Origin: SAR202 cluster bacterium AG-426-M11
GTDB lineage: Bacteria; Chloroflexota; Dehalococcoidia; Lucifugimonadales; UBA826
DNA length: 64,000 nucleotides
Assembly (NCBI GenBank): GCA_003213095.1
Contig: QCNV01000002.1
Span: forward strand, 6,300-70,299
Direction: 5' to 3'
Made by a program: the position numbers and the translations under genes. Below, in pieces: positions 16,569-46,945 of the stretch. The notes under the pieces were generated by a model, which was not told the origin of the DNA, ran no database searches, and saw only the letters and a program-made list of their open reading frames with translations. Positions within the stretch are counted from its first letter, which is position 1, and each line of letters starts with the position of its first letter.

Positions 16569-17543
16569 TTAAAGTCTAGTAATTGATAAATCCATTACCA
16601 ACTTGTCTTGAGCACCCAAATGATATTTATATCGTTCTGTACCTCGCAAAAAATTATAAACTTTCATTTCATTTTCTATAGATTCTTTAATGGTAAATGC
16701 TTTATTGATCAAACCCACACTTAAACTTGAAAATTCAGGATTATATCCACTGTTATACAATAAAACTTGGTCTTCATATTCAAAACATATACAAGCTGCA
16801 ACTATTTGCTCATCAAGCTCTAGAAAATACAAATTAAAAGAGTCTTGATAAGAAAATATTTTTGCTAATTCTTTAAAAAAAGATTTATTGAGATCCGACA
16901 AAAATTCCCCTTTGTCTTCTCTACTTTGAGCCATCAAATTAAAAAAAGTATTCATATACATCTCTAAAGAATTCGAATTCAGATCACATCTAAATTGTTT
17001 AAATGAATGACTTGATTCCAATCTACGGATTTTTCTCCTTAACTCATGACGGTCTTTTTTACGCAAATTCAATTGATAGTCATCCCAATTGTTAGGGAGC
17101 TGTAACAATGGAGTACAATCAGATTCAGTAATAGAAACATCAAAATTATTTGGACCAAAAAACTGTGGAAGTAATTTTAAGGTTGGAGAATCTTCAGGAA
17201 TAGATTCCAATTTGATATTTTCCCATTTTAATGATTGAATCATTTCAGCTGCTGACTCATAAAATAGAGATTCATACCCATTCAATACTGGGAAATCCAT
17301 ATAATCATAAACATCAGAATCCCCAATAAAACTCAATCTTCCATTTGTGTCCATTAACGGAACAACTCCAAGGTCAATCCCGTCTTTTTGAACAATTTCA
17401 AGATAAATGTCTGATTGTGGTTTGTAATTATTTACCCATATTTCCTGCCATGTTGGGGTAATAAAGATCGTACCGGTAGAGGAGTTTTTCAAAATCCTAT
17501 TCCAAGAAGCAATTTTTTCTAAATCATCGAATTTACTTGTCAT
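16569..17543 (-). CDS. FemAB-like/CelD-like GNAT-fold acyltransferase (Acetyltransf_6-type)
   Basis: The 324 aa length fits. 'KKDRHELRRKIRRLE' and the C-terminal 'YNSGYNPEF...YNFLRG.ERYKYHLGA' resemble the BioF2-like/CelD family. The start shares a base with the thrC stop (TAATG). Confidence 0.5.
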   Translation of the reverse strand: MTSKFDDLEKIASWNRILKNSSTGTIFITPTWQEIWVNNYKPQSDIYLEIVQKDGIDLGVVPLMDTNGRLSFIGDSDVYDYMDFPVLNGYESLFYESAAEMIQSLKWENIKLESIPEDSPTLKLLPQFFGPNNFDVSITESDCTPLLQLPNNWDDYQLNLRKKDRHELRRKIRRLESSHSFKQFRCDLNSNSLEMYMNTFFNLMAQSREDKGEFLSDLNKSFFKELAKIFSYQDSFNLYFLELDEQIVAACICFEYEDQVLLYNSGYNPEFSSLSVGLINKAFTIKESIENEMKVYNFLRGTERYKYHLGAQDKLVMDLSITRL

Positions 17544-22918: not shown

Positions 22919-22924
22919 TTAATT

Positions 22925-22960
22925 AATTGAGTCGGATTAATTAAATTTTCCGACTCAATT
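22925..22960 (+). terminator. Perfect 11-bp stem hairpin after glnA
   Basis: aattgagtcgg (22925-22935) and ccgactcaatt (22950-22960) with a 14-nt AT loop. No strong 3' T-run. Confidence 0.45.
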
Positions 22961-23065
22961 ATACTCATTCATTATTACAATATTGATTGACACTTTTTTG
23001 ACAAAACTATAGTCTATTGTTCCCCATATTTAGTTTTAATCAATCCAAATAATTCAGATAAATTT

Positions 23066-24400: not shown

Positions 24401-24414
24401 TATAAAATTAGATA

Positions 24415-28950: not shown

Positions 28951-30409
28951 AGCAACAGGTTTTAAAGAATTTACCAGGGAAACCCCCAATAGGTTCCCAG
29001 TAGATTTAAGATTAAATAATTTTAATGAATTTTATGAGGATCTAGATACTACTACCGCGGGAACACAGGGGGCTAGATGCATGAATTGCGCTGTACCTTT
29101 TTGTATGAGCGGATGTCCTCTAGGTAACATTATCCCTGATTTCAACCACTTAGTTTACCAAGGCAAATGGCAAGAAGCATTACAAGAATTACATTCTACT
29201 AACAATTTTCCCGAATTTACTGGAAGGATTTGTCCTGCCCCTTGTGAAGCTTCATGTGTATTAAACATCAATGATGATCCAGTAACAATAGAATTTATTG
29301 AAAAAACTATTGTTGACAGAGGATGGAAGGAAGGAATTATTAAACCAAATCCTCCTTCCTATAGAACTAATAAAAGTGTTGCAGTAGTAGGATCAGGGCC
29401 TTCTGGTTTAGCCGCATCTCAACAATTAAATTCTGCTGGTCATACAGTCACAGTTTATGAAAGAGCTGACTATTTAGGAGGATTATTAAGATTAGGTATC
29501 CCGGATTTCAAACTTGAAAAATCCGTAGTTCAACGAAGAATCGACCAAATGACTGAAGAAGGAATTACTTTTGTAACTGGTGCCCATATTGGGCAAAATT
29601 TTCCTGTTCAAGACCTAAAAGAAAATTTTGATTGCATATTACTAACAGGCGGTTCTACTATACCTAGAAATTTGCCCATACCCGGTAGAGAACTTAATGG
29701 AGTCCATTTTGCTATGGATTTCTTAACTCAGCAAAACAAGCTCAACTCTGGAGAATCTATACCCTCAGAAACAATAATTAATGCTGAAGGTAAAAAAGTA
29801 GTAATTCTCGGTGGAGGTGATACAGGATCTGATTGCTTAGGAACTTCTCTGAGGCAAGGAGCAGAGATTGTTTACCAATTAGAACTGTTACCAGAACCTC
29901 CCACAACTAGAAGAGCGAATGATTTATGGCCCAACTGGCCTATGATACTTAGGACTTCATCATCTCACGAAGAAGGTGGTAATAGAGATTATAATATTTT
30001 GACAAAATCATTTAATGGCATTAACGGACAATTAACTTCTTTAACAGCAGTCAAGGTAGATTGGGGAGCTCCAGATGAAAATGGCAGACCTACAATGATA
30101 GAAGTTCCTGATAGCGAATTCGTTTTAGAGGTTGATTTAGTACTTCTAGCCATGGGTTTCTTACACCCTGATAAAAATGGAATGTTGGAACAATTACAAG
30201 TTGAACTAGATCAAAGAGGTAACGTCAAAACGGACTCCAACAAAATGACCAATATACCGGGGGTATTTGCAGCTGGGGATATGTCGAGAGGACAATCTTT
30301 AGTTGTGTGGGCTATTGCAGAAGGAAGAGAAGCTGCCCGAGGAATTGACAAATACTTAATGGGAGATACCCTACTCCCAAAATCCGCAAGCAGTTATATA
30401 GCTAGATAA
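28943..30409 (+). CDS. gltD: Glutamate synthase small subunit (NADPH)
   Basis: 'RCMNCAVPFC', 'CPAPCE', 'VAVVGSGPSGLAA', 'FAAGD'. There is an 8-nt overlap with gltB. Confidence 0.95.
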   Translation: MGKATGFKEFTRETPNRFPVDLRLNNFNEFYEDLDTTTAGTQGARCMNCAVPFCMSGCPLGNIIPDFNHLVYQGKWQEALQELHSTNNFPEFTGRICPAPCEASCVLNINDDPVTIEFIEKTIVDRGWKEGIIKPNPPSYRTNKSVAVVGSGPSGLAASQQLNSAGHTVTVYERADYLGGLLRLGIPDFKLEKSVVQRRIDQMTEEGITFVTGAHIGQNFPVQDLKENFDCILLTGGSTIPRNLPIPGRELNGVHFAMDFLTQQNKLNSGESIPSETIINAEGKKVVILGGGDTGSDCLGTSLRQGAEIVYQLELLPEPPTTRRANDLWPNWPMILRTSSSHEEGGNRDYNILTKSFNGINGQLTSLTAVKVDWGAPDENGRPTMIEVPDSEFVLEVDLVLLAMGFLHPDKNGMLEQLQVELDQRGNVKTDSNKMTNIPGVFAAGDMSRGQSLVVWAIAEGREAARGIDKYLMGDTLLPKSASSYIAR

Positions 30410-32648: not shown

Positions 32649-33446
32649 ATGGGATTATTGATTCGTAATAAGATTGTTATTCTGCCCTTAATTGTAGGCA
32701 TAGTTTTGCTATTAATAGGATTTTTAATACTATCGCTAAACTTTAATTCTAGAAATGGAAATAACCTTCTCAATATTTCAAAATCAATTAACTCCGATTT
32801 CACTGATCAAAAAAACATCTTAATTACTAACAACATTATTACAAATTATTCCAATAATTCATTAATTAATGTTTATCACCCCAAATCGTGGCTTACATCT
32901 AGATGGATGAATTTAAACTATGATAATTTTTACATATATAATCATGATAAATTTTCTTCAGAAATACTTTCAAATTTATCTATATCAAAATTATCTGGAA
33001 CCCCTATTCAAATAGTCATACCACACATAAAAGTAAATTCTGCTGTAGAAAACCTAAAAGTAATCTCTATAGACGGGATTAAATCTTTTGATTCTCCTAA
33101 AAATATAGTTGGCAGGATTCCTAATGAATTTTTGGGATCCACAGATGCAACAGGATGGTATTTCGGACATTTAGAAAGCCCTATAAAAGGTGAAGGAAAT
33201 GTGTTTCAAGAATTACCCAATATTGCAAATGCAATTAAAAATGGAGATGTAGTTTATGTTTATTTAATCGGAGAAAATTATCAGTTAGTTTATGAAGCAT
33301 ACTCTTCTGAAGAAATTCACGAGGATGACCTAATAATTTTTAATCCGGGATTAGACATTATCAAGCTAGTCACATGTTCAAACAGGCCATTTTATGACTA
33401 CAGATTCATAGTTTCAGCAAAACTTATCGGAGAAATCAAAAAGTAA
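32649..33446 (+). CDS. Sortase-family transpeptidase, N-terminally membrane-anchored
   Basis: TM helix 'IVILPLIVGIVLLLIGFLILSL'. 'IVIPHIKVNSAV', catalytic-type 'FGH', 'KLVTCS' (TLxTC) and 'YRFIVSA' (Arg) are in sortase order. Confidence 0.7.
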   Translation: MGLLIRNKIVILPLIVGIVLLLIGFLILSLNFNSRNGNNLLNISKSINSDFTDQKNILITNNIITNYSNNSLINVYHPKSWLTSRWMNLNYDNFYIYNHDKFSSEILSNLSISKLSGTPIQIVIPHIKVNSAVENLKVISIDGIKSFDSPKNIVGRIPNEFLGSTDATGWYFGHLESPIKGEGNVFQELPNIANAIKNGDVVYVYLIGENYQLVYEAYSSEEIHEDDLIIFNPGLDIIKLVTCSNRPFYDYRFIVSAKLIGEIKK

Positions 33447-34322
33447 TTATGCTAATACTTCCCTCATCACATCAAAAAACTGATTTGATGGGGTGGAAAA
33501 GCTTTTTCCCGGCAATGTAAGTAATCCTGCTTGATCTACGGGTAAATAATTAGCAAGTGACAACACTTCTAATTCTTCTAAATCATCTTCTTCAATTGCT
33601 AATTTGGGACCAACAGATATCCCCATGCCTAAAGCCACAAATTTCTTAATCATATCCATACTTTCTAATTCCATCACTACATCATAAGCAATATTTTTTT
33701 TCTGAAATTGCTCCTCAACAATTTCTCTAGTATATGTCCCTTTAGCCATCATAATTAAAGGAAATTTTGCTACATCTTCCAAGTCAATAAACTCTTTAGT
33801 TAACAACTCATGATTTTTAGGGGCAATGAGAACTCTTTCATATAAAAACAGTGGCTCGAAATGTAAATCAGTTCCTCTATCTGGATGCTGAATAATTCCA
33901 GCATCTGCATCGCCTGTTTTCACCATGTTAGTTACTTCTGTTCGATTGCCAGAAATGATTTTAATAAAAACATCAGGAAATCGAATATTAAACTCTTTGA
34001 CTACCGTAAGCAGGGTGTGAGGAATAATATCAGGAGTAGCTGCAATAATCACAGGACCTTTTTCTTCTGCTGCAGAAGTCTTAGCTGCTAGAGAATCTAA
34101 TCCGTCTAAAAGTGGTTTAATCAGATCATAAATCATTTGACCCGACAAAGTCACACCAATTGGTCTAGTAACTCTATCGAATAAAACCATAGATAATTCT
34201 TGTTCTAGTTTTTTAATATGAGTAGTAACTGTTGGTTGCCCACAACCCAGCTCATGTGCAGCCTTAGAAATACTTCTATTTCTAGCTGCAGACTCAAAAC
34301 TTCTCAAATCTCTTATTTCCAA
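33447..34322 (-). CDS. LysR-family transcriptional regulator
   Basis: N-terminal wHTH 'ISKAAHELGCGQPTVTTHIKKLE' plus a LysR substrate-binding domain. TTG start preceded by 'AAGGTGGG'. Confidence 0.88.
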   Translation of the reverse strand: MEIRDLRSFESAARNRSISKAAHELGCGQPTVTTHIKKLEQELSMVLFDRVTRPIGVTLSGQMIYDLIKPLLDGLDSLAAKTSAAEEKGPVIIAATPDIIPHTLLTVVKEFNIRFPDVFIKIISGNRTEVTNMVKTGDADAGIIQHPDRGTDLHFEPLFLYERVLIAPKNHELLTKEFIDLEDVAKFPLIMMAKGTYTREIVEEQFQKKNIAYDVVMELESMDMIKKFVALGMGISVGPKLAIEEDDLEELEVLSLANYLPVDQAGLLTLPGKSFSTPSNQFFDVMREVLA

Positions 34323-34422: not shown

Positions 34423-35337
34423 ATGTATAGAAATAAAAATAAAAACTTAAGTACTGCTTTTTCAAAAACCAAAAATTCTTTATTTGGGCAAATCCCCTCA
34501 CTGTTCAAATCTTCACAACTTACATCAAGTGATTTAGAAGAATTAGAAGATATATTAATCAGTTCAGATGTTGGAATGAATTCAACTCAAAAAATCATTG
34601 AATCTATTCAAACAACTATAAATAAAAACAAACAGAATACGGGCAATTTAAGCACTCTAATTCAAAATGAAATCCTAAACATATTAAAATCATCTAAAAA
34701 TGACGATATTTCTAAACAAGATAACTTTCCTAAAATACTAATAATGGCAGGAGTCAACGGAGTTGGTAAAACCACTGCTATTGCAAAAATTTCTAATTTT
34801 TTTCAACAACAAGGAAAAACTATTTTATGTGGCGCCGCTGATACTTATAGAGCTGCAGCAATAGATCAAATCAAAGTATGGGGCGAGAAAGAAAACTTTG
34901 ATGTAATATCTCATCAACCTGGAAGCGATCCTAGCGCAGTAGCTTTTGACACAATATCTGCAGCAAAAAAAAGAAATATTGATTTAGTTCTCATAGATAC
35001 AGCAGGAAGATTACATGAAAATTCAAATTTAATGGATGAATTTAAAAAAATTCATAGAGTCCTAAATCAAGCTAAAGAGAATTTCAAATTAAATGTCTTA
35101 TTAACCTTAGACGCAACTACCGGACAAAATGGGCTCTTACAAGCAAAGGCATTTAATGAAACTGTTAAATGCGATGGCATTTTTTTAACAAAATTAGACG
35201 GGACATCTAAGGCTGGAATTATTATACCGATCATTGAAGAACTAAATATACCTATTTCGTTTATTGGAACAGGAGAACAATCATCTGACATATCTATATT
35301 CAACCCTAACTTATTTTCCAAATATGTCTTTAACTAA
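34423..35337 (+). CDS. ftsY: Signal recognition particle receptor FtsY
   Basis: SRP GTPase motifs 'GVNGVGKTT', 'DTAGRL', 'TKLDGTSKAG'. Confidence 0.93.
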   Translation: MYRNKNKNLSTAFSKTKNSLFGQIPSLFKSSQLTSSDLEELEDILISSDVGMNSTQKIIESIQTTINKNKQNTGNLSTLIQNEILNILKSSKNDDISKQDNFPKILIMAGVNGVGKTTAIAKISNFFQQQGKTILCGAADTYRAAAIDQIKVWGEKENFDVISHQPGSDPSAVAFDTISAAKKRNIDLVLIDTAGRLHENSNLMDEFKKIHRVLNQAKENFKLNVLLTLDATTGQNGLLQAKAFNETVKCDGIFLTKLDGTSKAGIIIPIIEELNIPISFIGTGEQSSDISIFNPNLFSKYVFN

Positions 35338-35351: not shown

Positions 35352-37643
35352 ATGAGCATTATTCTGTGGATCTTAACACTAGAAATTTTAGGCATAATTA
35401 CCCATCTATTAATATTTAATTTATTTAAAAATTTCTCATATCTAGGATTCTCTATAGCTAAGCCATTATTTTTACTTTTGTTTGGTGGACTGACATGGTC
35501 ATTACACGCATTAACTCCTATTGAGATATCACCTATAACATTAATAGGTTTGGTATTTGTATACGTGGCATTTTGCATATATTTTAGTAGGCGGTTTATA
35601 GTTTCATACATTAATTCAATAAAATCGAATTCACTGATAATTGGTTATATATTTTGTAGTTCTCTAATCATATTTGGTATTTTTTTACTCATAAAATCAT
35701 TAGATCCTTCAATTTCTCACACAGAACAACCAATGGATTTTGCTTTTTTAAATGCAATTTACAACACTTATATTAACCTACCCATGGACCCTTGGTTCAA
35801 AGGAGAAGTAATACATTATTATTACTTTGGATATTGGATTTTCGGCAAATACGGAACACTACTTTATATACCATCACAAATAACTTACAACTTAGCGATA
35901 ATTTCAATTCCATACCTATCTTTCAGTGCAATTTCCGGAATATTAATATACTTAATTAATCTGAAGTCTGTCAGATTTAAAAAATTATTAGTTCCCACTA
36001 TTTTTGCATCTTCTAGTTTAGTTTTCTTAGGAAATCTATATACCCCACTAAAAATGCTTCAAGAAAATTTCAAAATGCCTAAAACATTTTGGGATTTCTG
36101 GTGTGTAGAAGGGCTCTCAAGCTCAGAAATCTCTATAAATCCTAGTTTATTTCCTCAAGAATTTTGGTGGTGGTTCAAAAGTACTAGAATAATTAACCAT
36201 TTTGGAAACAAATGCGATCAGCCCGGAGTTGATTACACAATCAATGAATTTCCATTTTTTAGTTTCTTATTAGGAGATTTACACCCTCATGTAATGAGCA
36301 TCCCATTCGTTGTCACTTATATAATTTTTGCAGTTATTATTGCAAAAAACCCTACAATTGATCCAATTAAAAACATTGTTTATTTCATCTTATTAGGATT
36401 AATAGGATGGAGTATTACTTTCCTTAGTGTATGGAATATTTCAATAATTACATTGATTATTATAGGGATTTCCCTATTAAAAATATTGAATTATCAAAAT
36501 TATTCAAAAAACCAATTAATTGTATTCATTTCATTATTAGCGGCAATATCAGCAATACTGATATTGCCGCTAATAAATTCATTTGGATCTTCAATTCATG
36601 GAATTTATGCAACAAATATACAAAGTGATTTTTCACAAGAGGTAATTATTTGGTTTCCATTTTTATTAATCCATTTTATTTATTTAAGCCTAATAATCTG
36701 TAGACATCCTATAGGTAAAAACTGGAAAAAATCTTTATTGGTATCAGTAACAGTTGTAATTTCCCCAATATTTATTGCATTATTTTTACCATCAATCAAT
36801 CCAGAACTCACTAACAAAACATTTACTGGATTTTTATTTTTATTTTTTTCTGCCACCAGTATTTTTTACACGTTTTCTTTAAATCAAAATTATTTAAACC
36901 ACAAATCGGTCATTCCACTTGCATTAATTGGAGTGGCGTTCTTCATGTTAGCTATCCCAGAATTCGTATTTATAGGTGATATTTTTAATAACAGAATGAA
37001 TACAATATTTAAATCTTATTATCTAGCATGGATTTTATTATCAATTACAAGCGGAATATGTTTATATGAAGTACAGAATGTTTTGATTAAAAAAACAATA
37101 GTTAAAAAAATCTCATTAATGTCAGTAATCTTGATCCCATTTTTGTTAGGACTTTTATACATTCCTGCTACAGTTCAAAATATTATGCCAAATTCATATA
37201 AATTCTCAATAGATGGCTTTTCTCACATCAAAAAGTATAGTCCTCATACCCATAATGCTATCTTTTATGCAAAAAAACATATCCCACCCGAAGAAGGAAT
37301 TTTAGAGTCTGTGGGTGAATGGAATAATTTTGGAGTCATTTCTAGTAATACTGGAATCAGTAATATTATCAATTGGCCTGACCATGAAAAACAATGGAGA
37401 GGAAACAATTTAGAAATTCAATCTAGAGTAAAAAACGTAGACATTATTTTCAAAACAACTAATCTCAATGAAGCCAGGCAACTTTTAGACCTATATGGCA
37501 TCAGTTTTATATTCATAGGACAAAATGAATCAATTAAATATAATCCAGTATCATTAAAAAAATTCAACTTAATGGCAACTACAATATTTTCAGAAACATA
37601 TAATGGGCAAGAAATTAAAATCATGAAACTAAATAATGAATAA
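35352..37643 (+). CDS. DUF2298 / TIGR03662 'Chlor_Arch_YYY' polytopic membrane protein
   Basis: 763 aa, more than 15 hydrophobic segments, and the family-defining YYYxG motif ('EVIHYYYFGYW'). Confidence 0.75.
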   Translation: MSIILWILTLEILGIITHLLIFNLFKNFSYLGFSIAKPLFLLLFGGLTWSLHALTPIEISPITLIGLVFVYVAFCIYFSRRFIVSYINSIKSNSLIIGYIFCSSLIIFGIFLLIKSLDPSISHTEQPMDFAFLNAIYNTYINLPMDPWFKGEVIHYYYFGYWIFGKYGTLLYIPSQITYNLAIISIPYLSFSAISGILIYLINLKSVRFKKLLVPTIFASSSLVFLGNLYTPLKMLQENFKMPKTFWDFWCVEGLSSSEISINPSLFPQEFWWWFKSTRIINHFGNKCDQPGVDYTINEFPFFSFLLGDLHPHVMSIPFVVTYIIFAVIIAKNPTIDPIKNIVYFILLGLIGWSITFLSVWNISIITLIIIGISLLKILNYQNYSKNQLIVFISLLAAISAILILPLINSFGSSIHGIYATNIQSDFSQEVIIWFPFLLIHFIYLSLIICRHPIGKNWKKSLLVSVTVVISPIFIALFLPSINPELTNKTFTGFLFLFFSATSIFYTFSLNQNYLNHKSVIPLALIGVAFFMLAIPEFVFIGDIFNNRMNTIFKSYYLAWILLSITSGICLYEVQNVLIKKTIVKKISLMSVILIPFLLGLLYIPATVQNIMPNSYKFSIDGFSHIKKYSPHTHNAIFYAKKHIPPEEGILESVGEWNNFGVISSNTGISNIINWPDHEKQWRGNNLEIQSRVKNVDIIFKTTNLNEARQLLDLYGISFIFIGQNESIKYNPVSLKKFNLMATTIFSETYNGQEIKIMKLNNE

Positions 37644-39606
37644 ATATCTTAAGAATTCATCATTTATAAAAAAAGAATTTATTATATTCCCTTCAATATT
37701 TTTTATAGCTTTAGTTTTACGCCTATATGACCTTTCATCTAGAGCAATGCATCACGATGAAAGTTTACATGTTTTTTATTCTTGGAAATTATTTAAGGGG
37801 CTAGGGTATGAGCACAACCCTATGATGCATGGCCCATTACAAATGGAACTAACATCCATAATTTTTTCATTTTTAGGAGACTCTGACTTTTCTAGTCGAT
37901 TACTTTATGCAATTTGTGGAAGTATTTTAGTTTTGATGCCATATTTTTTCATCAAACACATGAATTTAATATCATGCATATTAATAAGTCTGTTTCTCGC
38001 GGTGTCCCCCACAGTTGTATATTTCAGCAGATTTGCTAGAAATGATGTTTTAATGAATTTATTTTCAATAATATTGATCCTTCTAATTTGGAAATATTTT
38101 TCGAATAAAGATTCAAAATACTTATATCTAATTTCAATAGTTTTAGCATTGATTTTTGGAACTAAAGAATCTTCATATTTACTGATATTTATGCTCGTAT
38201 CCTTCAATTTACTAAATATTGGATATATTGGTGTATCACAATTTAAATTACGCATGTATTCAAATTATTTAACATTTTCTGAACTAACTATCGCTCAAAT
38301 AGTTGCGGGTGTTTTAACAGAAACACTTAGCATATTCAAACGTTCTTCACAAAGAATCACTGATAATAAATTTGTGTCAATGAGCGTATTTTTAATCACA
38401 CTCACTCTCCCTCTTTGGGCAGCTTTTTCAGGAATACTTTTTAATTTTTTACCTATAGAAACCATCTTGATATCTTCGGATACCAATTCAGAAATTGGAA
38501 TGCCTGCTGATAAAAGTAATTTATTAGCTATTCTAATCACATCATGTTTGTTTTTTTTATCTGTTCTTATTGGATTCAAATGGGGTAAATTATTGTGGCT
38601 AAAATGTTCAATGTTTTTTTGGGTAATATGGGCATCAATCTACACTACATTATTTACCAATATGCCTGATGGGATTTACAAAGGATTGTGGCAATCTTTG
38701 GGATATTGGATAGTTCAACAAGGAGAGGGTAGAGGCAATCAACCTTTTTATTACTATTTTGTTTTGAGTTCTATTTATGAATTAGCAATACTAATATTGA
38801 GTTTAATTGCAATCATTTACTATATAAAAATCAAAAAAATCAAACCCAATGATTTCACTTTTTTTTTAATTTTTTGGGTAATTACATCTTGGATAATTTA
38901 CACATTAGCCAGCGAAAAAATGCCATGGTTACTATTTAATTTATCTGTTCCTATGATATTTTTATCAGGCAAATTTTTAGGTGACACCTTAACATCGTTA
39001 AGTTTAAAAGGAACACTGAAATATCAATCAATAGTTTTATCAGGTATTAGTTTGATTTTAATTTTCAATTTATGGGTCACTTATAGAGTAAATTTTATTA
39101 ATAGTGATATTCCAAGAGAAATGTTAATTTACACACAAACATCCCCCGATTTGAAATCAATAAGTGATGCAATCAATATTTACCAAAATCCTTCCAACAA
39201 ACAACAAAACATTTTAATTGATACAACTAGCGGATTTGTTTGGCCATGGGTTTGGTACCTAAGAAACAATGAAAATATTTTGTATCAAAACTTAACATCG
39301 CAGCCTATAGCACAATCTGATTTGGACGTTTTGATTATACATTCTACAAATATTTCAAAAGTACCTTCTGAAATAACTAAAAAATATCATGAACCTATTA
39401 TTTTCCCTCACAGATGGTGGTTTCCTGAATCAACATACAGAAATTTAAATTTTCAAATGATTTTAGAACCTCAAAAAATTATAAGATTATTTGACTACCT
39501 AATCTTCACTAATGGAATATCTTCAAAAATTGGCAGTGAGGATGCCTATTTGTTTATCAAGTCAGACTTCCCTGATTTAAAAATGATTTCTGAAAATTTC
39601 AAATAA
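37636..39606 (+). CDS. TIGR03663-family polytopic membrane protein, GT-C/PMT_2-like putative glycosyltransferase
   Basis: 656 aa. After TM1 it carries the family-invariant DE ('MHHDESLH') and HGP ('MMHGPLQ') with flanking Arg residues. It overlaps the upstream gene by 8 nt. Confidence 0.75.
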   Translation: MNKYLKNSSFIKKEFIIFPSIFFIALVLRLYDLSSRAMHHDESLHVFYSWKLFKGLGYEHNPMMHGPLQMELTSIIFSFLGDSDFSSRLLYAICGSILVLMPYFFIKHMNLISCILISLFLAVSPTVVYFSRFARNDVLMNLFSIILILLIWKYFSNKDSKYLYLISIVLALIFGTKESSYLLIFMLVSFNLLNIGYIGVSQFKLRMYSNYLTFSELTIAQIVAGVLTETLSIFKRSSQRITDNKFVSMSVFLITLTLPLWAAFSGILFNFLPIETILISSDTNSEIGMPADKSNLLAILITSCLFFLSVLIGFKWGKLLWLKCSMFFWVIWASIYTTLFTNMPDGIYKGLWQSLGYWIVQQGEGRGNQPFYYYFVLSSIYELAILILSLIAIIYYIKIKKIKPNDFTFFLIFWVITSWIIYTLASEKMPWLLFNLSVPMIFLSGKFLGDTLTSLSLKGTLKYQSIVLSGISLILIFNLWVTYRVNFINSDIPREMLIYTQTSPDLKSISDAINIYQNPSNKQQNILIDTTSGFVWPWVWYLRNNENILYQNLTSQPIAQSDLDVLIIHSTNISKVPSEITKKYHEPIIFPHRWWFPESTYRNLNFQMILEPQKIIRLFDYLIFTNGISSKIGSEDAYLFIKSDFPDLKMISENFK

Positions 39607-39623
39607 CTAATATGGAATAAATA

Positions 39624-40667
39624 ATGATAAAAACTTTTTTAATGATTTTTTCAGGGATATTACTTTTAGTTTTTTTTATTTGGACTTCTGATATTTCTAA
39701 AATGCTAGAACACCTAGAACAATCTAACTATTACATATTAATTCCTGGATTAGTATGTTATTTCATTAGCTTATGGGTCAGGACAATTCGATGGAAATAT
39801 CTGATAGGCACACAACACAAACTTAAAAATAAAACTTTATTTCCAATGGTTGTTATAGGGTATATGGCAAACAATATTTTACCCTTAAGAGCTGGGGAAT
39901 TTATAAGGAGCTATTTGCTATCTCAAAAATCATCAATCAAGTTGGCAACTGGAATTAGCACCATTTTTGTAGAAAGAATTATGGATGCTCTAGCATTGAT
40001 ATTTCTAGTAATAACAATGTCATTCTTCATACCAATTTCAGACATTCTTGACCATTTTGAAAATCTAACAAAAATTAATTCTTTAATCCTTATTTTAATT
40101 TTTTCGATACCTTTTTTATTAATCTTTACCCTATTATTAATTTCAGCTTTTCTCCCGAAAATAACGTTAAATTTCGTAGGATTTTCTTCTCAATTTCTTC
40201 CAAACAAAATCTCTAAAATATACTTAGAATTGTTTAATCAATTCTTCGATGGGTTCAAATATTTAAATAACAGAAAAACTTTAACTGTCACCTTATTTCT
40301 GTCAGTACCTATTTGGATCCTTGAATCACTATTGTTTTATTTTGTTTGTGTCAGTATAGGAATAGATCATAATTTTGAATCACACCTTTATTTAATCGAA
40401 TCCTCTATTATGATTACAGGGATAGTTAATTTAGGAGCTTCTATACCTATCACTCCTGGAGGGATTGGGCTATTTGAAATTATTGCACGAGAAACATTAC
40501 TACTCATCCCATATTCCAATACTTCCAGGTCTGAAGCAGCAGTTTTTGCTGGAATGACTCATGCATTATTAATTATTCCAGTAGTAATTTTGGGGCAGTT
40601 TTTTCTATGGAAAAATGGATTGTCTATCAAAAACATTAAATTAAATAAGGGAAATTCAAACAAATAA
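39624..40667 (+). CDS. UPF0104 / LPG-synthase-TM (MprF flippase-like) family membrane protein
   Basis: 'RTIRWKYL', 'VVIGYMANNILPLRAGEFIRSYLL' and about 8 TM helices are typical of PF03706-type proteins. Confidence 0.75.
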   Translation: MIKTFLMIFSGILLLVFFIWTSDISKMLEHLEQSNYYILIPGLVCYFISLWVRTIRWKYLIGTQHKLKNKTLFPMVVIGYMANNILPLRAGEFIRSYLLSQKSSIKLATGISTIFVERIMDALALIFLVITMSFFIPISDILDHFENLTKINSLILILIFSIPFLLIFTLLLISAFLPKITLNFVGFSSQFLPNKISKIYLELFNQFFDGFKYLNNRKTLTVTLFLSVPIWILESLLFYFVCVSIGIDHNFESHLYLIESSIMITGIVNLGASIPITPGGIGLFEIIARETLLLIPYSNTSRSEAAVFAGMTHALLIIPVVILGQFFLWKNGLSIKNIKLNKGNSNK

Positions 40668-40668
40668 A

Positions 40669-41985
40669 ATGAAAATTGCCATCCTTGGAGCAGGCGCTAC
40701 TGGACTAACTACAGCCTTAAGACTTGCTCAAAAAACATCATCTGAAATTACCGTTTTTGAAAAAGACTCTTTTTTAGGGGGACATGCTTCAACATTCCAA
40801 GTTAACAGCACTCCAATAGAAAAAGGATATCATCACTGGTTCACTAGCGATAATAAAATCATAGAATTAATGAGTGAATTAGGATTACAAAATCACATTG
40901 GATGGTATGAATCTTCTGTAGGGACTGTTTTTAATTCAAAAATTTATGATTTCATGACTCCTATAGACCTACTAAGATACAAACCTCTTTCTATAATTAA
41001 CAGAATTTCCTTAGGATTATCTAGCTTAAAAATTAGTAAAATAAAAAACTGGCATGATCTTGAAAACTTTACCGCCGTTGATTGGTTAAACAAAAACGTC
41101 AAGCCTCAAATTTATCACGCATTTTGGGAACCAATGTTGATAGGAAAATTTGGCGAAGAACACTATAAAGAAGTAGGAATGCCGTGGCTATGGGGAAAAA
41201 TGAATACTAGATTCAAATCTAGAGAAGGGTTCTTGTCCAAGGAAAAACTTGGATACCCAATTGGAAGTTTTGATATTCTTTTCAATTCTTTGTCACAAAA
41301 ATGCGAAAATTTAGGAGTAAAAATCCACTTAAATTCTCAGGTCAATCAAATAAAAAACAACCACGGAAGTCTTGAAGTATCTATTAGTGATGCAGAAACA
41401 TTAAATTTCGACGCAGTAATTGCTACGGTCCCTTCTAATGTTTTTCATAGAATCACCACTGGGTTAGAGGAATCTTATATAGAAAAACTTCAAAATACAC
41501 GCTATATGTCAGCTGTACAAATAATACTAGAATTAAAGCACCAGCTTTCAAAATATTATTGGCTAAACATCGCTGATAGAAGTTTCCCATTTGTAGGAGT
41601 AATTGAACACACAAATTTGGTTAATGAATCAATTTACGGAAATAGTCATATAGTTTATTTATCAAATTATCTTACTCCTAAAAACTCACTGTATCATCTT
41701 AATAAAACTGAATTGCTAGAAAAATATCTCCCATTTCTGTATCAAATCAACAATAAATTTTCAGAAAATTGGATTATAAAATCTCATTATCAAAAAATCC
41801 CTGGAGCGCAACCAATTATTGAATCACAATATTCAAACAAAATGCCCACACACGAAACAGGTATCAAAAATTTATATTTGGGAAACACTTCTCAAATATA
41901 CCCTGAAGATAGAGGAACAAATTACAGTGTAGAACTTGGAGAAAAATTAGCTGAATTGCTAATAAAAAAATCAATAAACAATTGA
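40669..41985 (+). CDS. FAD-dependent oxidoreductase (amine-oxidase/phytoene-desaturase/PPO superfamily)
   Basis: N-terminal dinucleotide fold 'KIAILGAGATGLTTALRLA...VFEKDSFLGGHA'. 438 aa. The start lies 1 nt after the upstream stop. Confidence 0.7.
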   Translation: MKIAILGAGATGLTTALRLAQKTSSEITVFEKDSFLGGHASTFQVNSTPIEKGYHHWFTSDNKIIELMSELGLQNHIGWYESSVGTVFNSKIYDFMTPIDLLRYKPLSIINRISLGLSSLKISKIKNWHDLENFTAVDWLNKNVKPQIYHAFWEPMLIGKFGEEHYKEVGMPWLWGKMNTRFKSREGFLSKEKLGYPIGSFDILFNSLSQKCENLGVKIHLNSQVNQIKNNHGSLEVSISDAETLNFDAVIATVPSNVFHRITTGLEESYIEKLQNTRYMSAVQIILELKHQLSKYYWLNIADRSFPFVGVIEHTNLVNESIYGNSHIVYLSNYLTPKNSLYHLNKTELLEKYLPFLYQINNKFSENWIIKSHYQKIPGAQPIIESQYSNKMPTHETGIKNLYLGNTSQIYPEDRGTNYSVELGEKLAELLIKKSINN

Positions 41986-42031: not shown

Positions 42032-42538
42032 ATGAGGAGTACATCTTTGCCCGCTGATAACGACACTTTAAGAAAACAAATTATTGAAGCTATTGCTTCC
42101 CAACATAGACCTACTGTAACCGTTTTGTCTTCTTTACTTGCAATTCAAGACTCTATTGGTTACATACCCGATGAAGCAATTGAAGAAGTTGCAGTGCAGC
42201 AAAATACCACAGTGAACGCTGTATTTGGTGTTGCTTCATTTTACCCTAACTTTCGATTTAGTCCGCCCAATAAGCATTCGATTGAAGTATGTTGGGGACC
42301 TACCTGTCATTTACAAGGGTCATCCAACATTTTACAAGCAGTACTAAATTATCTAGAGCTAAAAGAAGAAGGAGATACTGAAGATGGAGAATTCTCTTTT
42401 AGGTTCAATACTTGCTTAGGAGCTTGCTCTCAAGCTCCGGTAATCAGCGTAAATCACGAGTTGTTTGGAAAAATTTCTCCAGATGAGTCTATTAACATAA
42501 TAAATAAAATTAAATCATCGGACCCACATCACAAATAA
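42032..42538 (+). CDS. NuoE/FdsG-like [2Fe-2S] subunit
   Basis: 'CWGPTCHLQG' and 'CLGACSQAPV' provide the four-Cys thioredoxin-like ferredoxin pattern of NuoE. Confidence 0.85.
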   Translation: MRSTSLPADNDTLRKQIIEAIASQHRPTVTVLSSLLAIQDSIGYIPDEAIEEVAVQQNTTVNAVFGVASFYPNFRFSPPNKHSIEVCWGPTCHLQGSSNILQAVLNYLELKEEGDTEDGEFSFRFNTCLGACSQAPVISVNHELFGKISPDESINIINKIKSSDPHHK

Positions 42539-44283
42539 TGAATTTTGAAGAATTAAAAAATCAAGCAGATGAAAAATGGAATCAATTAAATGACTCCCCT
42601 ACTCCTGTAATTAGGGTTGGTACCGCTATGTGTGGACATGCTTCTGGAGCATTTAGAGTAATCCAAGCGTTAAAAACTTTATTGGCCGAGAAAAAAATTG
42701 ATGCAATTATTGAAGAAGTGGGATGTATAGGATTATGTTATGCAGAACCCTTAATTGATATCAAAAAACAAGGTAAATCAAGACTGTTCTTCAATAACGT
42801 CAGTGTAAATAATATAGAAGAAATTGTTGAAGAATATTTAGTCAACAATAAGATTAAAAATGCTTCAACATTAGGATATCTTGGAAAAGAAGGGTCAGTT
42901 TTCAATGAGCCAGACTTAAACACTCTCCCAGGAATAGCATTACAAGAAAGAATTGCACTTAGAAATGCTGGACACACAGCCCCTGGAGACATATTTCAAT
43001 ATATTGCTAACGGGGGTTACAGTGGGCTCAACAAAGCTTTATCAACTATGGAACCATCAGACGTAATAGAAGAAGTCAAAAATTCTGGATTAAGGGGACG
43101 TGGGGGAGCTGCATTTCCTACAGGAATCAAATGGAGTTTTTTGGTTGGGTCACCAGGACCTACAAAATATATTCTTTGCAATTGTGAAGAAGGTGACCCA
43201 GGAGCTTTTAATGACAAAGGTATATTAGAAAGTGACCCACACACTCTATTAGAAGGCTTATTGATCGCTGGATACGCAACAGGAGCAAGTAACGGAATCG
43301 TATTTATCAGACACGGACATGACGGACCTATCAACAGAACAGAAGAAGCCATCAAACAAGCAAAAGAATTAGGCATATTAGGTAAAGATATATTTGGTTC
43401 AGGTTTTGATTTTGACATTGAAGTGTCTTTAACTGGAGAGTCTTACGTTGCAGGAGAAGAAACAGCCTTAATGGAAGCTGTTGAAGGAAAAAGATCTATG
43501 CCTAGGTATCGTCCACCATTCCCGGCTGCATTTGGGGTATGGGGTAAGCCAAGTAATATTAATAATGTGAAATCTTTATCTTATGCTCCCGAAATTATAT
43601 CAAAAGGTGCAGATTGGTTCTCATCAATCGGAGTGAATAAAAGTACTGGAACTGCTATTGTGTGTTTAAGTGGTGATGTTAATCAACCAGGTTTATACGA
43701 AGTTCCAATGGGACTTACACTGCAACAAGTAATCAATGATTTAGGTGGCGGAATGAAGAAAGACCAAACCCTAAAGCTACTACAAACTGGAGGCCCTTTG
43801 GGTGGTGTCCTTGGTCCTGACAGCACAGATATCCATATTGATTTTGATGAGATGAGAGCTGCTGGAGCTATATTCGGATCTGGTGGAATCATTGTTGGAA
43901 GTAATAAAGTTTGTGCAGTGGATCTAACAAGAATTCTTGTCGCATTTTGTCAATTTGAATCTTGTGGAAAATGCTTCCCATGTAGATTAGGAATGGAGCA
44001 TCTTCTTGAGATTGTCGAAAGGATTTCTAATTTTGAAAGCCAGCCGGGAGATATGGATTTAATGAAAAGTGTGGGAGGAACAATGGAATCTGGATCACTT
44101 TGTGGTCATGGGCAATTAGGTTTTGGACCAATTCGATCTGCAATTACTCACTTTGAAGAAGACTTTCGTTTACACATAGAGGAAAGGATATGCCCGACGG
44201 GATCTTGTAACAACCCAAAAATTGTCCCAAAAAATACACGTCCATATGCTCAAGACTTTGTCGCAGGAGTGAAAAATGACTGA
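42538..44283 (+). CDS. NuoF/FdsB-like NAD(H)- and FMN-binding subunit with ~140-aa N-terminal extension
   Basis: 'GLRGRGGAAFPTGIKW' (FMN/NADH site), 'CNCEEGDPGAF' and the [4Fe-4S] motif 'ESCGKCFPCRLG...CGHG'. At 581 aa it is longer than canonical NuoF as I recall it. Confidence 0.85.
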   Translation: MNFEELKNQADEKWNQLNDSPTPVIRVGTAMCGHASGAFRVIQALKTLLAEKKIDAIIEEVGCIGLCYAEPLIDIKKQGKSRLFFNNVSVNNIEEIVEEYLVNNKIKNASTLGYLGKEGSVFNEPDLNTLPGIALQERIALRNAGHTAPGDIFQYIANGGYSGLNKALSTMEPSDVIEEVKNSGLRGRGGAAFPTGIKWSFLVGSPGPTKYILCNCEEGDPGAFNDKGILESDPHTLLEGLLIAGYATGASNGIVFIRHGHDGPINRTEEAIKQAKELGILGKDIFGSGFDFDIEVSLTGESYVAGEETALMEAVEGKRSMPRYRPPFPAAFGVWGKPSNINNVKSLSYAPEIISKGADWFSSIGVNKSTGTAIVCLSGDVNQPGLYEVPMGLTLQQVINDLGGGMKKDQTLKLLQTGGPLGGVLGPDSTDIHIDFDEMRAAGAIFGSGGIIVGSNKVCAVDLTRILVAFCQFESCGKCFPCRLGMEHLLEIVERISNFESQPGDMDLMKSVGGTMESGSLCGHGQLGFGPIRSAITHFEEDFRLHIEERICPTGSCNNPKIVPKNTRPYAQDFVAGVKND

Positions 44284-46945
44284 AAAGATAAACTTGATTA
44301 TTGATGGTAAAGAAATACAAGCTGAACCAGGAAGCATGATAATTCAAGCTGCTATGGACAATGGGATGTACATCCCATATCTATGCTATTATCCAGGAAT
44401 GAAACCTTACGGCGCGTGTCGAATGTGCGTTGTAAAAGCTGAAACACCAACACCCGACGGTTCCTACAGGTCGTTACCAGGAAATCCTGCTTCCTGCACT
44501 ACGCCCATTTCTGAAGGAATGCGTGTAGAGACAAACACTGACGAATTAATTTCTCTTCGTAAAGGAATAATGGAATTACTTATTTCTGAGCATCCTCACG
44601 GATGTTTGAATTGTCACAGAATTGATCTTTGTGGACCTACAGATGTCTGCCTAAGACATGTAACAGTAAATGACAGGTGTGTCACTTGTCCTAAAAATGA
44701 AAGATGTGAACTAAAAGATACTGTTAGATACATGGAAATGGAATTGACTACACCATTAACTTACAACAATAGACATTTACCATTAGAAGTTAAAGATCCT
44801 TACTGGGATATGGATATGAACTTGTGTATTGTTTGTTCAAGATGCGTGAGAGCGTGTGATGAAGTTAGAGTTGATCAAGCTATCACATTAAAAGATAGAT
44901 CTGGAAGAAGTATTATTGGAACGTCAAATGGAATCTCATTATTAGAATCCGGTTGTGAATTTTGCGGTGCATGTATAGATGTATGCCCAACAGGTGCTAT
45001 AGTCGAACGAGATTATAAATGGGATAAAGCAGAAACCAAAACCACTACAACCTGCCCTCATTGCCCAGTGGGATGCCAAACATCATTGGATATTAATAAA
45101 CGAAATAAATTAATTCGCTCAATTCCAGTTCGCGAAGCAGAAGCAAATCAAGGCATGACTTGCTTTAAAGGTAAATTTGGACTTGATTACGTCAATAATA
45201 GGAATAGAATCAAAACTCCTTTAATCAAAAAAAATGGACAATTAACTGAATCTTCTTGGCCAGAAGCCTTAGATTTAGTAGCTTCTAAATTTTCTCAATA
45301 TAAAGGAAATTCGTACTCATTAATCTCTTCTGACAGAGGAACTAATGAAGATCATTTCATTGCTCAAAAATTTGCTAGACAAGTCATGGATTCAAATAAC
45401 ATAGATTTCTCTTCCAACACTAATACTGAGATATTCGATAATTTGTCAGATATGATTGGGCATCCATCCGCTACAAATACAATTTGGAACTTATTAAAAT
45501 CTGAATTGTTTGTGATAATTTCTTCGAATATAACAGAACAACACAACGTATTAGGAGTTCCTATAAAACAAGCTATATCTAAGGGAGCAAAAGCAATAAT
45601 TATAGACCCTAGAGAAACAGACCTTTCAAGATTCTCTGACAATTGGATTAAACCCAATATCAACACAGAACACATATTAATTGGCGGAATCATTCGGTCA
45701 GTAATAGACCAATCATTAGAAGATCATGATTTTTCAACTAAATCATGCGAAAACTTTGACGAGTTTCGAAACAGTATTTGGGACTTCGATCTTTCTAGAG
45801 TTTCTACAGAAACAGGAATTGCTCAAGATGAAATTCAAAATTTAGCAAAACTAATTGCTGAATCTCAATCTACATCATTTTTATATTCATTAGATACAAT
45901 ATCTTCAGAATTGAAATCTTCAGCATCAACATCAATAATAAATTTGGCTCTATTAACTGGAAATACAGACAAACCTGGTGCTGGTATTTACCCATTATTC
46001 TCAGGGCCTAATGAACAAGGAGCTAGAGACATAGGCTGCACACCCAATTTCATGCCTGGGTACAATCACAATCCTACAAGTGGAATAGGTTTGAAACAAT
46101 TAAATGAATCTATCAATCGAGGTGATATTAAGGCTTTACACATTTTAGGAAATCAAGCTTCAATAGGTTCTGAATCAGGCAAAACTATTAAAAACATAGT
46201 CGATAAAGTAGAATTTCTTGTAGTACATGAAAGTTTCGAAAATGAATTCACTGACTGTGCAGACGTAGTTTTTCCGTCCAGTTTATTTGCAGAAAAAGAT
46301 GGAACTTTTACTAACCTCGAGCGACGAATCCATAAGGTCAATCCTGCACTTGGGAGTAAATTTGACGAAGACGAGGATTGGCGAATTCTCTGTCAAATAG
46401 CCTTACGAATGGGATCAAATGCATTCAATTACAATACGTCCCATGAAGTATTCACTGAGCTTTCAACATTTATCCAAACTACTGATGAAATTAGTTTTGA
46501 TAAAATTTCTGAAAGTGGTCAAATTTATGGAGTTGAAAGAAATTATAAATTTAAACCTTTAAGCATGACTCTATCTAAAGGATCTATTGCGACTGACACA
46601 TTCCCTATGATACTAACACGAGGAAGAATTTTAGAAGAATCAACAGTAGATGCAAAAATCGAATTAGTGAATGATAAAAACTCTATTACAAGAAACGAAA
46701 TAATTGAATTAAACTCTCAAGATGCTGCCGATATCAATATTTTGGAGGGTGATCCCGTAAAAATTATTGGAGAAAATTTCGAACTTTCTGGTGTAGCTCA
46801 CCTCAACGGAATAAACAGTGGGACTGTTTCCACAACTCAACTTTTTGGATCGCTTATAGAAAAAGTTCAAGAGCATAAAACTGAAGATCCTATGTTGTAT
46901 TTCGACGAGTTGACTTTAATTCCTGTGAGAATAGAGAAACCTTAA
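44276..46945 (+). CDS. NuoG/FdsA-like Fe-S plus molybdopterin-oxidoreductase-domain subunit, FDH catalytic dyad absent
   Basis: 2Fe-2S 'CYYPGMKPYGACRMC'; H-x3-C-x2-C-x5-C 'HPHGCLNCHRIDLC'; two 4Fe-4S motifs ('CIVCSRCVRAC', 'CEFCGACIDVCP'); MopB 4Fe-4S 'CPHCPVGC...C'. Where FDHs have '..C/U-H..', this reads 'NNIDFSSNTNTE'. Confidence 0.75.
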   Translation: MTEKINLIIDGKEIQAEPGSMIIQAAMDNGMYIPYLCYYPGMKPYGACRMCVVKAETPTPDGSYRSLPGNPASCTTPISEGMRVETNTDELISLRKGIMELLISEHPHGCLNCHRIDLCGPTDVCLRHVTVNDRCVTCPKNERCELKDTVRYMEMELTTPLTYNNRHLPLEVKDPYWDMDMNLCIVCSRCVRACDEVRVDQAITLKDRSGRSIIGTSNGISLLESGCEFCGACIDVCPTGAIVERDYKWDKAETKTTTTCPHCPVGCQTSLDINKRNKLIRSIPVREAEANQGMTCFKGKFGLDYVNNRNRIKTPLIKKNGQLTESSWPEALDLVASKFSQYKGNSYSLISSDRGTNEDHFIAQKFARQVMDSNNIDFSSNTNTEIFDNLSDMIGHPSATNTIWNLLKSELFVIISSNITEQHNVLGVPIKQAISKGAKAIIIDPRETDLSRFSDNWIKPNINTEHILIGGIIRSVIDQSLEDHDFSTKSCENFDEFRNSIWDFDLSRVSTETGIAQDEIQNLAKLIAESQSTSFLYSLDTISSELKSSASTSIINLALLTGNTDKPGAGIYPLFSGPNEQGARDIGCTPNFMPGYNHNPTSGIGLKQLNESINRGDIKALHILGNQASIGSESGKTIKNIVDKVEFLVVHESFENEFTDCADVVFPSSLFAEKDGTFTNLERRIHKVNPALGSKFDEDEDWRILCQIALRMGSNAFNYNTSHEVFTELSTFIQTTDEISFDKISESGQIYGVERNYKFKPLSMTLSKGSIATDTFPMILTRGRILEESTVDAKIELVNDKNSITRNEIIELNSQDAADINILEGDPVKIIGENFELSGVAHLNGINSGTVSTTQLFGSLIEKVQEHKTEDPMLYFDELTLIPVRIEKP

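Follow-up and report, generated by a model that had tools for sequence, protein, structure and literature searches.

Introduction

Lipid-carrier-dependent extracytoplasmic glycosylation follows a well-established scheme that combines a synthase, a flippase and a GT-C glycosyltransferase, with optional tailoring of the lipid-linked donor (PMC11127046; PMC3871713). The three-component systems used for comparison here are GtrA/GtrB/GtrC, ArnC/ArnEF/ArnT, AglD/AglR/AglS and C. youngae ORF15/ORF14/ORF12 (PMC11127046, PMC3871713), with DprE1/E2 and ORF13 as precedents for donor tailoring in the cytoplasm. This study examined a 64,000-nucleotide stretch of the genome of SAR202 cluster bacterium AG-426-M11 (contig QCNV01000002.1, positions 6,300 to 70,299; referred to as the window), in which ftsY is followed by four closely packed genes encoding a DUF2298 membrane protein (gene 1), a TIGR03663 (Agl23-family) membrane protein (gene 2), a UPF0104 flippase-like protein (gene 3) and a PRK07233-family flavoenzyme (gene 4). 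It is concluded, with moderate confidence, that these genes represent a conserved Dehalococcoidia (SAR202-type) cluster encoding the membrane-side part of a three-component-type system of this kind, in which two GT-C enzymes are joined by a flavoenzyme that has an accessory role and acts on the lipid-linked donor.

Related components have been described in archaea. UPF0104 proteins were predicted to be flippases of archaeal glycosylation (Makarova et al. 2015, PMC5898192), and a conserved archaeal neighbourhood of arCOG00899 (UPF0104), arCOG00563 (PMT/STT3-like) and arCOG00897 (AglD-like GT2) was predicted to be a glycosylation system (PMC5898192). The TIGR03663 family is now named 'flippase activity-associated protein Agl23' by NCBIfam, after a putative hexose-P-dolichol flippase of Haloarcula hispanica (PMC11182771); this protein, HhAgl23, suppressed a yeast rft1 deletion, and in purified form it translocated M5GN2-PP-dolichol in proteoliposomes (PMC11182771). 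With genetic and in vitro evidence of flipping for HhAgl23, the original prediction for this locus, which held that no member of the DUF2298 and TIGR03663 pair had an assigned function, is outdated on this point. For DUF2298 and PRK07233, a literature search retrieved no functional studies.

Gene layout and comparison with described systems

Genes were called from a six-frame open reading frame (ORF) list and direct translation, giving the following features of the cluster and its upstream neighbour:

34423-35337, + strand: ftsY (signal recognition particle receptor), 304 aa; TIGR00064, 320.6 bits against a cutoff of 260.7
35352-37643, + strand: gene 1, DUF2298 / Chlor_Arch_YYY polytopic membrane protein, 763 aa; PF10060, TIGR03662
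35814-35837, + strand: HYYYFGYW motif, gene 1 residues 155-162; YYYxG signature of TIGR03662
37636-39606, + strand: gene 2, TIGR03663 (Agl23-family) PMT/STT3-like membrane protein, 656 aa; TIGR03663, PMT_2
37750-37764, + strand: HHDES, gene 2 residues 39-43, in the predicted first external loop after the first transmembrane segment (TM1); site of the PMT-type 'DE' motif
37825-37836, + strand: MHGP, gene 2 residues 64-67; HGP signature of TIGR03663
39624-40667, + strand: gene 3, stand-alone UPF0104 / LPG_synthase_TM (MprF-type) flippase-like membrane protein, 347 aa; PF03706, TIGR00374
40669-41985, + strand: gene 4, PRK07233-family FAD-dependent oxidoreductase, predicted soluble, 438 aa; NF005560, PF01593

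Gene 1 starts 14 nt after ftsY, genes 1 and 2 overlap by 8 nt (ATGAATAA), and gaps of 17 nt and 1 nt separate genes 2 and 3 and genes 3 and 4, respectively. Direct translation places LPLRAGE at residue 86 of gene 3 and the GxGxxG motif of an N-terminal FAD fold (GAGATG) at residues 7-12 of gene 4, so that the coordinates, junctions and motifs given for the four genes in the original prediction were all reproduced. The family assignments proposed there likewise all scored over the curated cutoffs of their hidden Markov models (HMMs): gene 1 matched PF10060 (DUF2298; 240.4 bits, cutoff 27.8) and TIGR03662 (344.1 bits, cutoff 300.25), gene 2 matched TIGR03663 (255.2 bits, cutoff 126.25) and PF13231 (PMT_2; 37.8 bits, cutoff 26.1), gene 3 matched PF03706 (157.1 bits, cutoff 33.4) and TIGR00374 (107.2 bits, cutoff 43.2), and gene 4 matched NF005560/PRK07233 (447.1 bits, cutoff 252) and PF01593 (98 bits, cutoff 19.8). 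With ORFs of 347-763 codons in DNA of ~30% G+C and E-values from 1e-9 (PF13231, the weakest) to 1e-134, these assignments far exceed chance. Promoter and terminator scans were uninformative, yielding fewer matches than shuffled sequence, and the operon structure was therefore deduced from spacing alone.

Like the described three-component systems, the cluster joins a flippase-type membrane protein to enzymes of predicted GT-C fold whose catalytic loops would face outward. In contrast to those systems, it has no synthase gene, two unrelated GT-C proteins rather than one, a flippase candidate of the UPF0104/MprF type rather than of the GtrA, SMR, MATE or Wzx type, and, as an accessory, a PRK07233 flavoprotein of the amine-oxidase fold, which occurs in no described system. 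The archaeal arCOG neighbourhood is similar in placing a stand-alone UPF0104 protein beside a PMT/STT3-like polytopic enzyme and in the prediction of a glycosylation flippase; unlike it, the SAR202 cluster is bacterial, has no GT2 gene and includes DUF2298 and PRK07233 genes.

Conservation of the cluster

A search of one genome per GTDB species yielded 570 confirmed relatives, and the best 80 loci, all from Dehalococcoidia / SAR202 (Chloroflexota), were kept. To assess synteny, the window proteins were compared by BLASTP with the ORFs of each locus, and gene content was counted on the 68 loci with both flanks. The nearest relatives are metagenome-assembled genomes of the SAR202 cluster / Dehalococcoidia, with gene 2 being 71-72% identical to its counterparts in loci L001 and L041. 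All four genes were found together in 42 of the 68 loci, bearing out the linkage of the flippase-like and FAD genes to the DUF2298/TIGR03663 pair in other genomes. The remaining loci carried genes 1 and 2 (5/68), genes 1, 2 and 3 (3/68), genes 1, 2 and 4 (2/68), genes 2, 3 and 4 (1/68) or gene 2 alone (15/68). The four-gene order is thus not kept wherever the family pair occurs, given the solo gene 2 loci and three haloarchaeal Agl23 loci without partners. L012, the one locus scanned among those with gene 2 alone, has unrelated neighbours, namely amidohydrolase, DAO and enolase-family genes.

Within the cluster, gene 2 is followed by gene 3 in 45/68 loci, and the closest coupling is that of genes 3 and 4, which overlap or lie at most 30 nt apart in 25 of 41 loci, with an ATGA-type 4-nt overlap in 12 (start codons being approximate). 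Genes 3 and 4 also remain paired where mobile or defence genes (transposase, restriction-modification, STAND) split them from gene 2. A hidden GT2 gene was sought in the gaps that displace genes 3 and 4 from gene 2 and none was found, the gaps containing SDR, molybdopterin oxidoreductase, IS605 TnpB, restriction-modification and STAND NTPase genes instead.

In several Dehalococcoidia genomes, such insertions of mobile or defence genes lie between genes 2 and 3 or between genes 3 and 4 (L047 12817-19682; L079 12540-13730; L060 13303-14538; L077 12942-15323). The inserted genes encode an Eco57I-type methylase, an SNF2/PLD helicase, IS605 OrfB and STAND/AAA NTPases, and the site looks like a recurrent insertion point.

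Predicted GT-C folds of the two large membrane proteins

An alignment of 66 homologues showed H39, H40, D41, E42, S43, H65, G66, P67, R88, R132 and R135 to be invariant in gene 2. Because its N-terminus is rich in K/R (5 residues), the N-terminus is placed in the cytoplasm and the loop carrying HHDES and HGP outside, which would put D41 and E42 directly after TM1 in the first extracytoplasmic loop, the position occupied by the catalytic Asp in the GT-C enzymes treated in PMC11127046. The AlphaFold2 model built from the 66-sequence alignment reached a predicted local distance difference test score (pLDDT) of 88.4 and a predicted template modelling score (pTM) of 0.91, and all 28 Foldseek matches of this model to the PDB at E<=1e-3 were GT-C enzymes (STT3 at 8e-8, AglB, PglB, ALG9, ALG12, ArnT and Pmt4).

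The model of gene 1 shows ~17 hydrophobic helices, and its length of 763 aa fits the YYYxG-family size of about 700-900 aa. Among 60 homologues, the outward-facing invariant residues are D118, D129, D146, Y156-G160, W273/W274, D294, T296, I297, E299, H311 and H313; W162 of HYYYFGYW is invariant as well, and D309 is nearly so. The conserved acidic and His residues sit in two long loops predicted to be external by the positive-inside rule, D118, D129 and D146 falling in the first long external loop but past the fourth helix rather than TM1. The 60-sequence model (pLDDT 88.2, pTM 0.92) gave eight Foldseek matches at E<=1e-3, among them A. fulgidus AglB (6.8e-7), DPY19 (1.5e-5), yeast STT3 (6.2e-5) and AftA, followed by weaker matches to PglB (E 2.5e-3) and ArnT (E 0.17, probability 0.80), and its C-terminal globular domain separately matched the AglB C-terminal domain 3vu0. 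A GT-C fold with a C-terminal extracytoplasmic globular domain is accordingly predicted for gene 1 from the model. The segments T296-I297-x-E299 and D309-x-H311 resemble the TIXE and DxH motifs of AglB, in another order and loop, and are offered as a lead only.

Combined, the significant structural matches of both predicted models are to GT-C enzymes exclusively, with Foldseek probabilities of 1.00 for AglB, STT3, PglB, DPY19, AftA, ALG9, ALG12 and Pmt4, and for ArnT with gene 2. The structural question posed in the original prediction, whether both large proteins have GT-C folds, is thus answered in favour of that fold by the models (pLDDT 88, pTM 0.91-0.92), and each protein is predicted to carry conserved acidic and His residues in outward-facing loops and an external C-terminal globular domain. 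The structures closest to gene 1 and gene 2 are STT3/AglB/PglB and DPY19 (STT3 for gene 2), and the two proteins differ from them in lacking a PF02516 match and the WWDYG motif, with TM-scores of 0.33-0.48. At the sequence level, none of gene 1, gene 2 and the 60 homologues of gene 1 gave an STT3 (PF02516) match with hits allowed up to E<=1, the string WWD(Y/W)G was absent from both proteins, and a relaxed Pfam scan of the 60 gene 1 homologues found DUF2298 as the sole family. Comparison of genes 1, 2 and 3 with PDB chains, as sequences and as profiles of 23 and 60 homologues, found nothing meaningful, and an hhalign comparison of the gene 1 and gene 2 profiles detected no relationship (probability 7.7%).

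Two further observations concern gene 1 and its family. On a Pseudobutyrivibrio plasmid, a DUF2298 gene is located amid GtrII-type GT-C, GT2, O-antigen-ligase and sugar-epimerase genes, which form a surface-glycan cluster, and this context supports the proposed glycosylation role. Within the gene 1 coding sequence of the window, a transmembrane segment contains a perfect inverted repeat (36534-36576; arms of 19 bp, loop of 5 nt), which is present in a single copy in the window and has no counterpart in the two closest relatives (L001, L041).

Relationship of gene 2 to Agl23

Gene 2 resembles H. hispanica Agl23 in passing the TIGR03663 model, in keeping the DE, HGP and Arg signatures and a PMT_2-type N-terminal core, and in being a polytopic protein tied to lipid-linked sugars. 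Against the Agl23 of a Halogeometricum borinquense plasmid (319 bits on TIGR03663), the alignment covers residues 6-179 at 32% identity, with a weak second segment, and the HGP motif is kept in this haloarchaeal Agl23 too. Precomputed Pfam annotation assigned the Agl23_C domain (PF26681) to none of 120 gene 2 relatives, including one that is 97% identical, vs all 120 haloarchaeal relatives; the gene 2 relatives were annotated with PF13231 and some also with PF02366. In place of Agl23_C, gene 2 has a lineage-specific globular domain at its C-terminus, conserved within Chloroflexota, with invariant YTQTSPD, WPWxWYLR and HRWWFPE. By HMM score and N-terminal signature gene 2 is therefore a TIGR03663 member, yet a divergent and distant one, so that a function equivalent to that of Agl23 should not be assumed. 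The activity reported for Agl23 is flipping, whereas the predicted fold and the motifs of gene 2 point to transfer.

On the Halogeometricum borinquense plasmid pHBOR02 (L081 11995-14366), the Agl23 gene and a gene of the GtrA family share a 4-nt overlap, and the pair adjoins two GH18 chitinase-like genes and PKD-domain genes. This overlap mirrors the adjacency of genes 2 and 3 and supports the proposed glycosylation assignment. The three haloarchaeal chromosomal Agl23 genes are solitary, unlike the clustered gene 2. In a groundwater Chloroflexi locus (L072 5667-12898), gene 1 is followed by two tandem gene 2 paralogues, which fits the TIGRFAMs remark that a genome can hold up to three TIGR03663 copies.

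The PRK07233 flavoenzyme and its flippase-type partners

PRK07233 is an NCBIfam 'equivalog' model named solely 'hypothetical protein'. Gene 4 scored far under the cutoffs of the named families HpnE (80.3 vs 283 bits), which is its second-best NCBIfam match, protoporphyrinogen oxidase (50.8 vs 97.85 bits) and the CrtI family (39 vs 238 bits). It nevertheless shares with phytoene desaturase, HpnE and protoporphyrinogen oxidase the amine-oxidase / phytoene-desaturase fold class: the best PDB match of a 26-member gene 4 profile was plant phytoene desaturase 5mog, aligned over the full length (72 bits, E 2.7e-19), with two archaeal proteins from structural genomics ranking next, ahead of protoporphyrinogen oxidase, and UGM a weak match (37.8 bits). 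The original prediction had proposed that the flavoenzyme acts either on the carrier or, in a UGM-like manner, on the sugar; the first option is slightly favoured by nearest relatives that are isoprenoid-chain enzymes, and the UGM-like option is the weaker one (37.8 vs 72 bits for phytoene desaturase).

An exhaustive phmmer search of the gene 4 family against 1.84 billion representatives retrieved 935 representative clusters of PRK07233 relatives at E<=1e-30, and fusions were counted among the best 150. A UPF0104+PRK07233 fusion (P0451) reached 461 bits on the PRK07233 model; its translation from the contig is correct, and its gene overlaps a GT2 gene upstream. Fusions to GtrA were found in both domain orders (GtrA+PRK07233, n=3; PRK07233+GtrA, n=1), together with one GtrA+PRK07233+GT2+GT2 protein and one PRK07233+methyltransferase protein. 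In Embleya, a gene for a DegT aminotransferase is followed by a GT2 gene, which in turn overlaps the PRK07233 gene (460 bits). Among four arbitrarily sampled metagenome loci with unfused PRK07233 genes, one had the gene directly after a full-length TIGR03663 gene (300 bits), one in a GT2 - UPF0104 - x - PRK07233 - GT2 array, one in a large cluster with PMT_2, GT2 and DegT genes, and one without such context.

Additionally, plasmids of Agrobacterium, Burkholderia and Rhodobacteraceae (L082 2458-8640, L083 2446-8685, L085 3430-9597) share a six-gene cassette of UbiA-like phosphoribosyltransferase, DprE1-like, DprE2-like, SDR epimerase, PRK07233 and GtrA genes, in which the PRK07233 gene overlaps the GtrA gene. 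The PRK07233 proteins of Agrobacterium and Burkholderia, the two that were scored, reached 510 and 548 bits, respectively. The cassette has the composition of a decaprenyl-phospho-arabinose-like pathway with two extra redox enzymes.

PRK07233 is therefore repeatedly overlapped with or fused to flippase-type (UPF0104, GtrA) and GT2 proteins across phyla, an observation that is new as far as can be told. We read these arrangements as strong evidence that flippase-type proteins and the PRK07233 enzyme work together, with a lipid-linked sugar or its carrier as the substrate of the enzyme. Since the contexts span pentose-type, hexose-type (GT2) and amino-sugar (DegT) clusters and the nearest relatives act on isoprenoid chains, we lean slightly toward the polyprenyl moiety, and not the sugar, as the target of gene 4. 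Sugar oxidation in the manner of DprE1, which likewise belongs to lipid-linked-sugar clusters and is unrelated in fold, is nearly as likely.

Proposed mechanism and alternative explanations

From these components we infer the following roles. A sugar would be loaded onto polyprenyl phosphate by a cytoplasmic synthase encoded elsewhere; gene 4, together with gene 3 at the inner face of the membrane, would oxidise or reduce either the lipid-linked sugar or the carrier's polyprenyl chain; gene 3 would carry the lipid-linked donor to the outer leaflet; and genes 1 and 2, with their predicted GT-C folds, would pass the sugar or sugars to an envelope acceptor (a surface protein or glycan), acting sequentially or as a pair. 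Since the best structural matches glycosylate proteins and the conserved neighbours include a sortase gene and ftsY, there are hints that the acceptor could be surface proteins, a suggestion that is speculative. The original prediction had described a self-contained envelope module for lipid-linked glycans; the lipid-linked-sugar part of that idea fits the evidence, and the self-contained part does not, there being no donor synthase in the cluster, the scanned window genes or the inserts.

Several points weigh against a glycosylation role. No GT2 or UbiA-like polyprenyl-phosphate-sugar synthase was found in the cluster, in the window ORFs between 13.7 and 53.9 kb or in the inserts of related loci. 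Gene 2 is alone in the 15 loci noted above, and the three haloarchaeal chromosomal Agl23 genes stand without any partner. No sequence-level link of gene 1 to any GT-C family was found, and the Foldseek TM-scores, obtained on predicted models, are modest (0.31-0.49). In addition, the only characterised TIGR03663 member, H. hispanica Agl23, was reported to be a flippase and not a transferase (PMC11182771), and where flipping by UPF0104 proteins is backed by experiments, the substrates are modified phospholipids and not polyprenyl-phosphate sugars.

The main alternative takes up the reported activity of HhAgl23: gene 2 would flip or scramble polyprenyl-(di)phosphate-linked glycans, or serve as a cofactor of their flippase, gene 1 would be the sole transferase and gene 3 would flip a second lipid. 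The NCBIfam flippase name of TIGR03663, which gene 2 matches at 255 bits, and the M5GN2-PP-Dol translocation and yeast rft1 suppression by HhAgl23 (PMC11182771) speak for this possibility, which is nevertheless considered unlikely. The resemblance of gene 2 to haloarchaeal Agl23 is limited to the N-terminal 177 residues at 32% identity, and the PF26681 domain present in archaeal Agl23 is absent from gene 2 relatives. The predicted GT-C fold with significant matches to transferases only, the invariant DE, HGP and Arg residues at GT-C active-site positions and the repeated pairing of Agl23-family genes with flippase-type genes argue against it as well; given the flippase-like gene 3 next to gene 2 and the coupling of Agl23 to GtrA in Halogeometricum, a GT-C enzyme paired with a flippase is the simpler account of both.

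The two other explanations are less likely than a flippase role of gene 2. Remodelling of membrane lipids, in which gene 3 would flip a modified phospholipid or glycolipid in the manner of MprF and GpgF, gene 4 would saturate or desaturate an isoprenoid or acyl lipid and the GT-C proteins would decorate a head group as ArnT does on lipid A, appears improbable. It draws on the UPF0104 members backed by experiments or genetics, which handle lysyl-phosphatidylglycerol (PMC5898192), on the glucosaminyl-phosphatidylglycerol predicted for GpgF (PMC12713373), on the use of isoprenoid hydrocarbons by the nearest solved or named relatives of gene 4 (phytoene desaturase, HpnE) and on ArnT, which both large proteins match in structure. 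Gene 3, however, reached only 25.7 bits on the glucosaminyl-phosphatidylglycerol flippase (GpgF) equivalog NF053789, far below the cutoff of 320, and the cluster encodes no aminoacyl-phosphatidylglycerol synthase or lipid glycosyltransferase. The fusions of PRK07233 to GtrA and GT2 and its presence in decaprenyl-phospho-arabinose-like cassettes are polyprenyl-phosphate-sugar contexts, and the enzymes that genes 1 and 2 match best in structure (AglB, STT3, DPY19, PMT) glycosylate proteins.

That the four genes are neighbours by genome history within one class and share no pathway, as the origin of all 80 best loci from Dehalococcoidia, the synteny of the housekeeping neighbours (sortase, LysR, ftsY, nuoE/F, fdhA) and the solo gene 2 loci might suggest, is very improbable in view of the recurrence of gene 3-gene 4 type pairs and fusions in unrelated phyla, the TIGR03663-PRK07233 adjacency on an unrelated metagenome contig, the start/stop overlaps between genes and the fact that all four products are membrane or lipid-carrier-related.

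Neighbouring genes and other features of the window

Gene 1 is adjoined by ftsY in 48 of 52 related loci, in 13 of them on the opposite strand, and both ftsY and nuoE look like products of synteny rather than members of the module. Just upstream of ftsY, a sortase-domain gene (+) and a LysR regulator gene (-) at 32649-34322 show synteny with the cluster in many of the SAR202 loci. A trio of NuoE-like, NuoF-like and formate-dehydrogenase-alpha/NuoG-like genes (42032-46945) starts 46 nt past gene 4 and follows the cluster in 27/52 loci; it probably encodes an NAD-linked formate dehydrogenase unrelated to the module. Between 34001 and 42000 of the window, across ftsY and gene 4, G+C is 28-31%, vs 36-38% in the flanks. 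Recent horizontal transfer was considered as a cause of this dip at 34-42 kb and rejected, because relatives keep the synteny and the genes encode hydrophobic proteins rich in AT codons.

The sole other glycosyltransferase in the scanned part of the window is a GT4 at 15371-16564, which together with a CpsB/CapC-type phosphatase and two GNAT acetyltransferases (13700-17543) may form a small surface-polysaccharide locus. A compact nitrogen-assimilation block at 21485-30409 comprises two glutamine synthetase paralogues followed by the large and small subunits of glutamate synthase. On the opposite strand, a T-box leader at 63149-63374 (-), scoring 110.7 bits against a gathering score of 93, is located upstream of a 565-aa ORF (61384-63081, -).

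Implications

Taken at the strength of the predicted models, DUF2298, a family without a function or structure, may now be regarded as a GT-C enzyme whose external domain resembles that of AglB. That Agl23-family genes pair with dedicated flippase-type genes is consistent with transferase activity and bears on the question of whether this family consists of flippases or transferases. The links of PRK07233 span Chloroflexota, Proteobacteria and Actinomycetota, suggesting that lipid-linked sugar donors or their carriers undergo a redox step that has gone unrecognised. A bolder extension, which is put forward as a doubtful but far-reaching possibility, is that DUF2298 proteins are an unrecognised STT3/AglB-like GT-C class that glycosylates surface proteins with an Agl23-family partner in Chloroflexota, and that PRK07233 is a widespread, undescribed fourth component, coupled to flippases and modifying the polyprenyl carrier (e.g., by saturation to a dolichol-like form). 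If true, such flippase-coupled carrier modification would give bacteria a dedicated carrier pool. SAR202 and other Dehalococcoidia are abundant uncultivated bacteria of the ocean and subsurface whose envelopes are almost unstudied, and a conserved cluster with two GT-C enzymes would open an entry to the surface glycobiology of the Dehalococcoidia.

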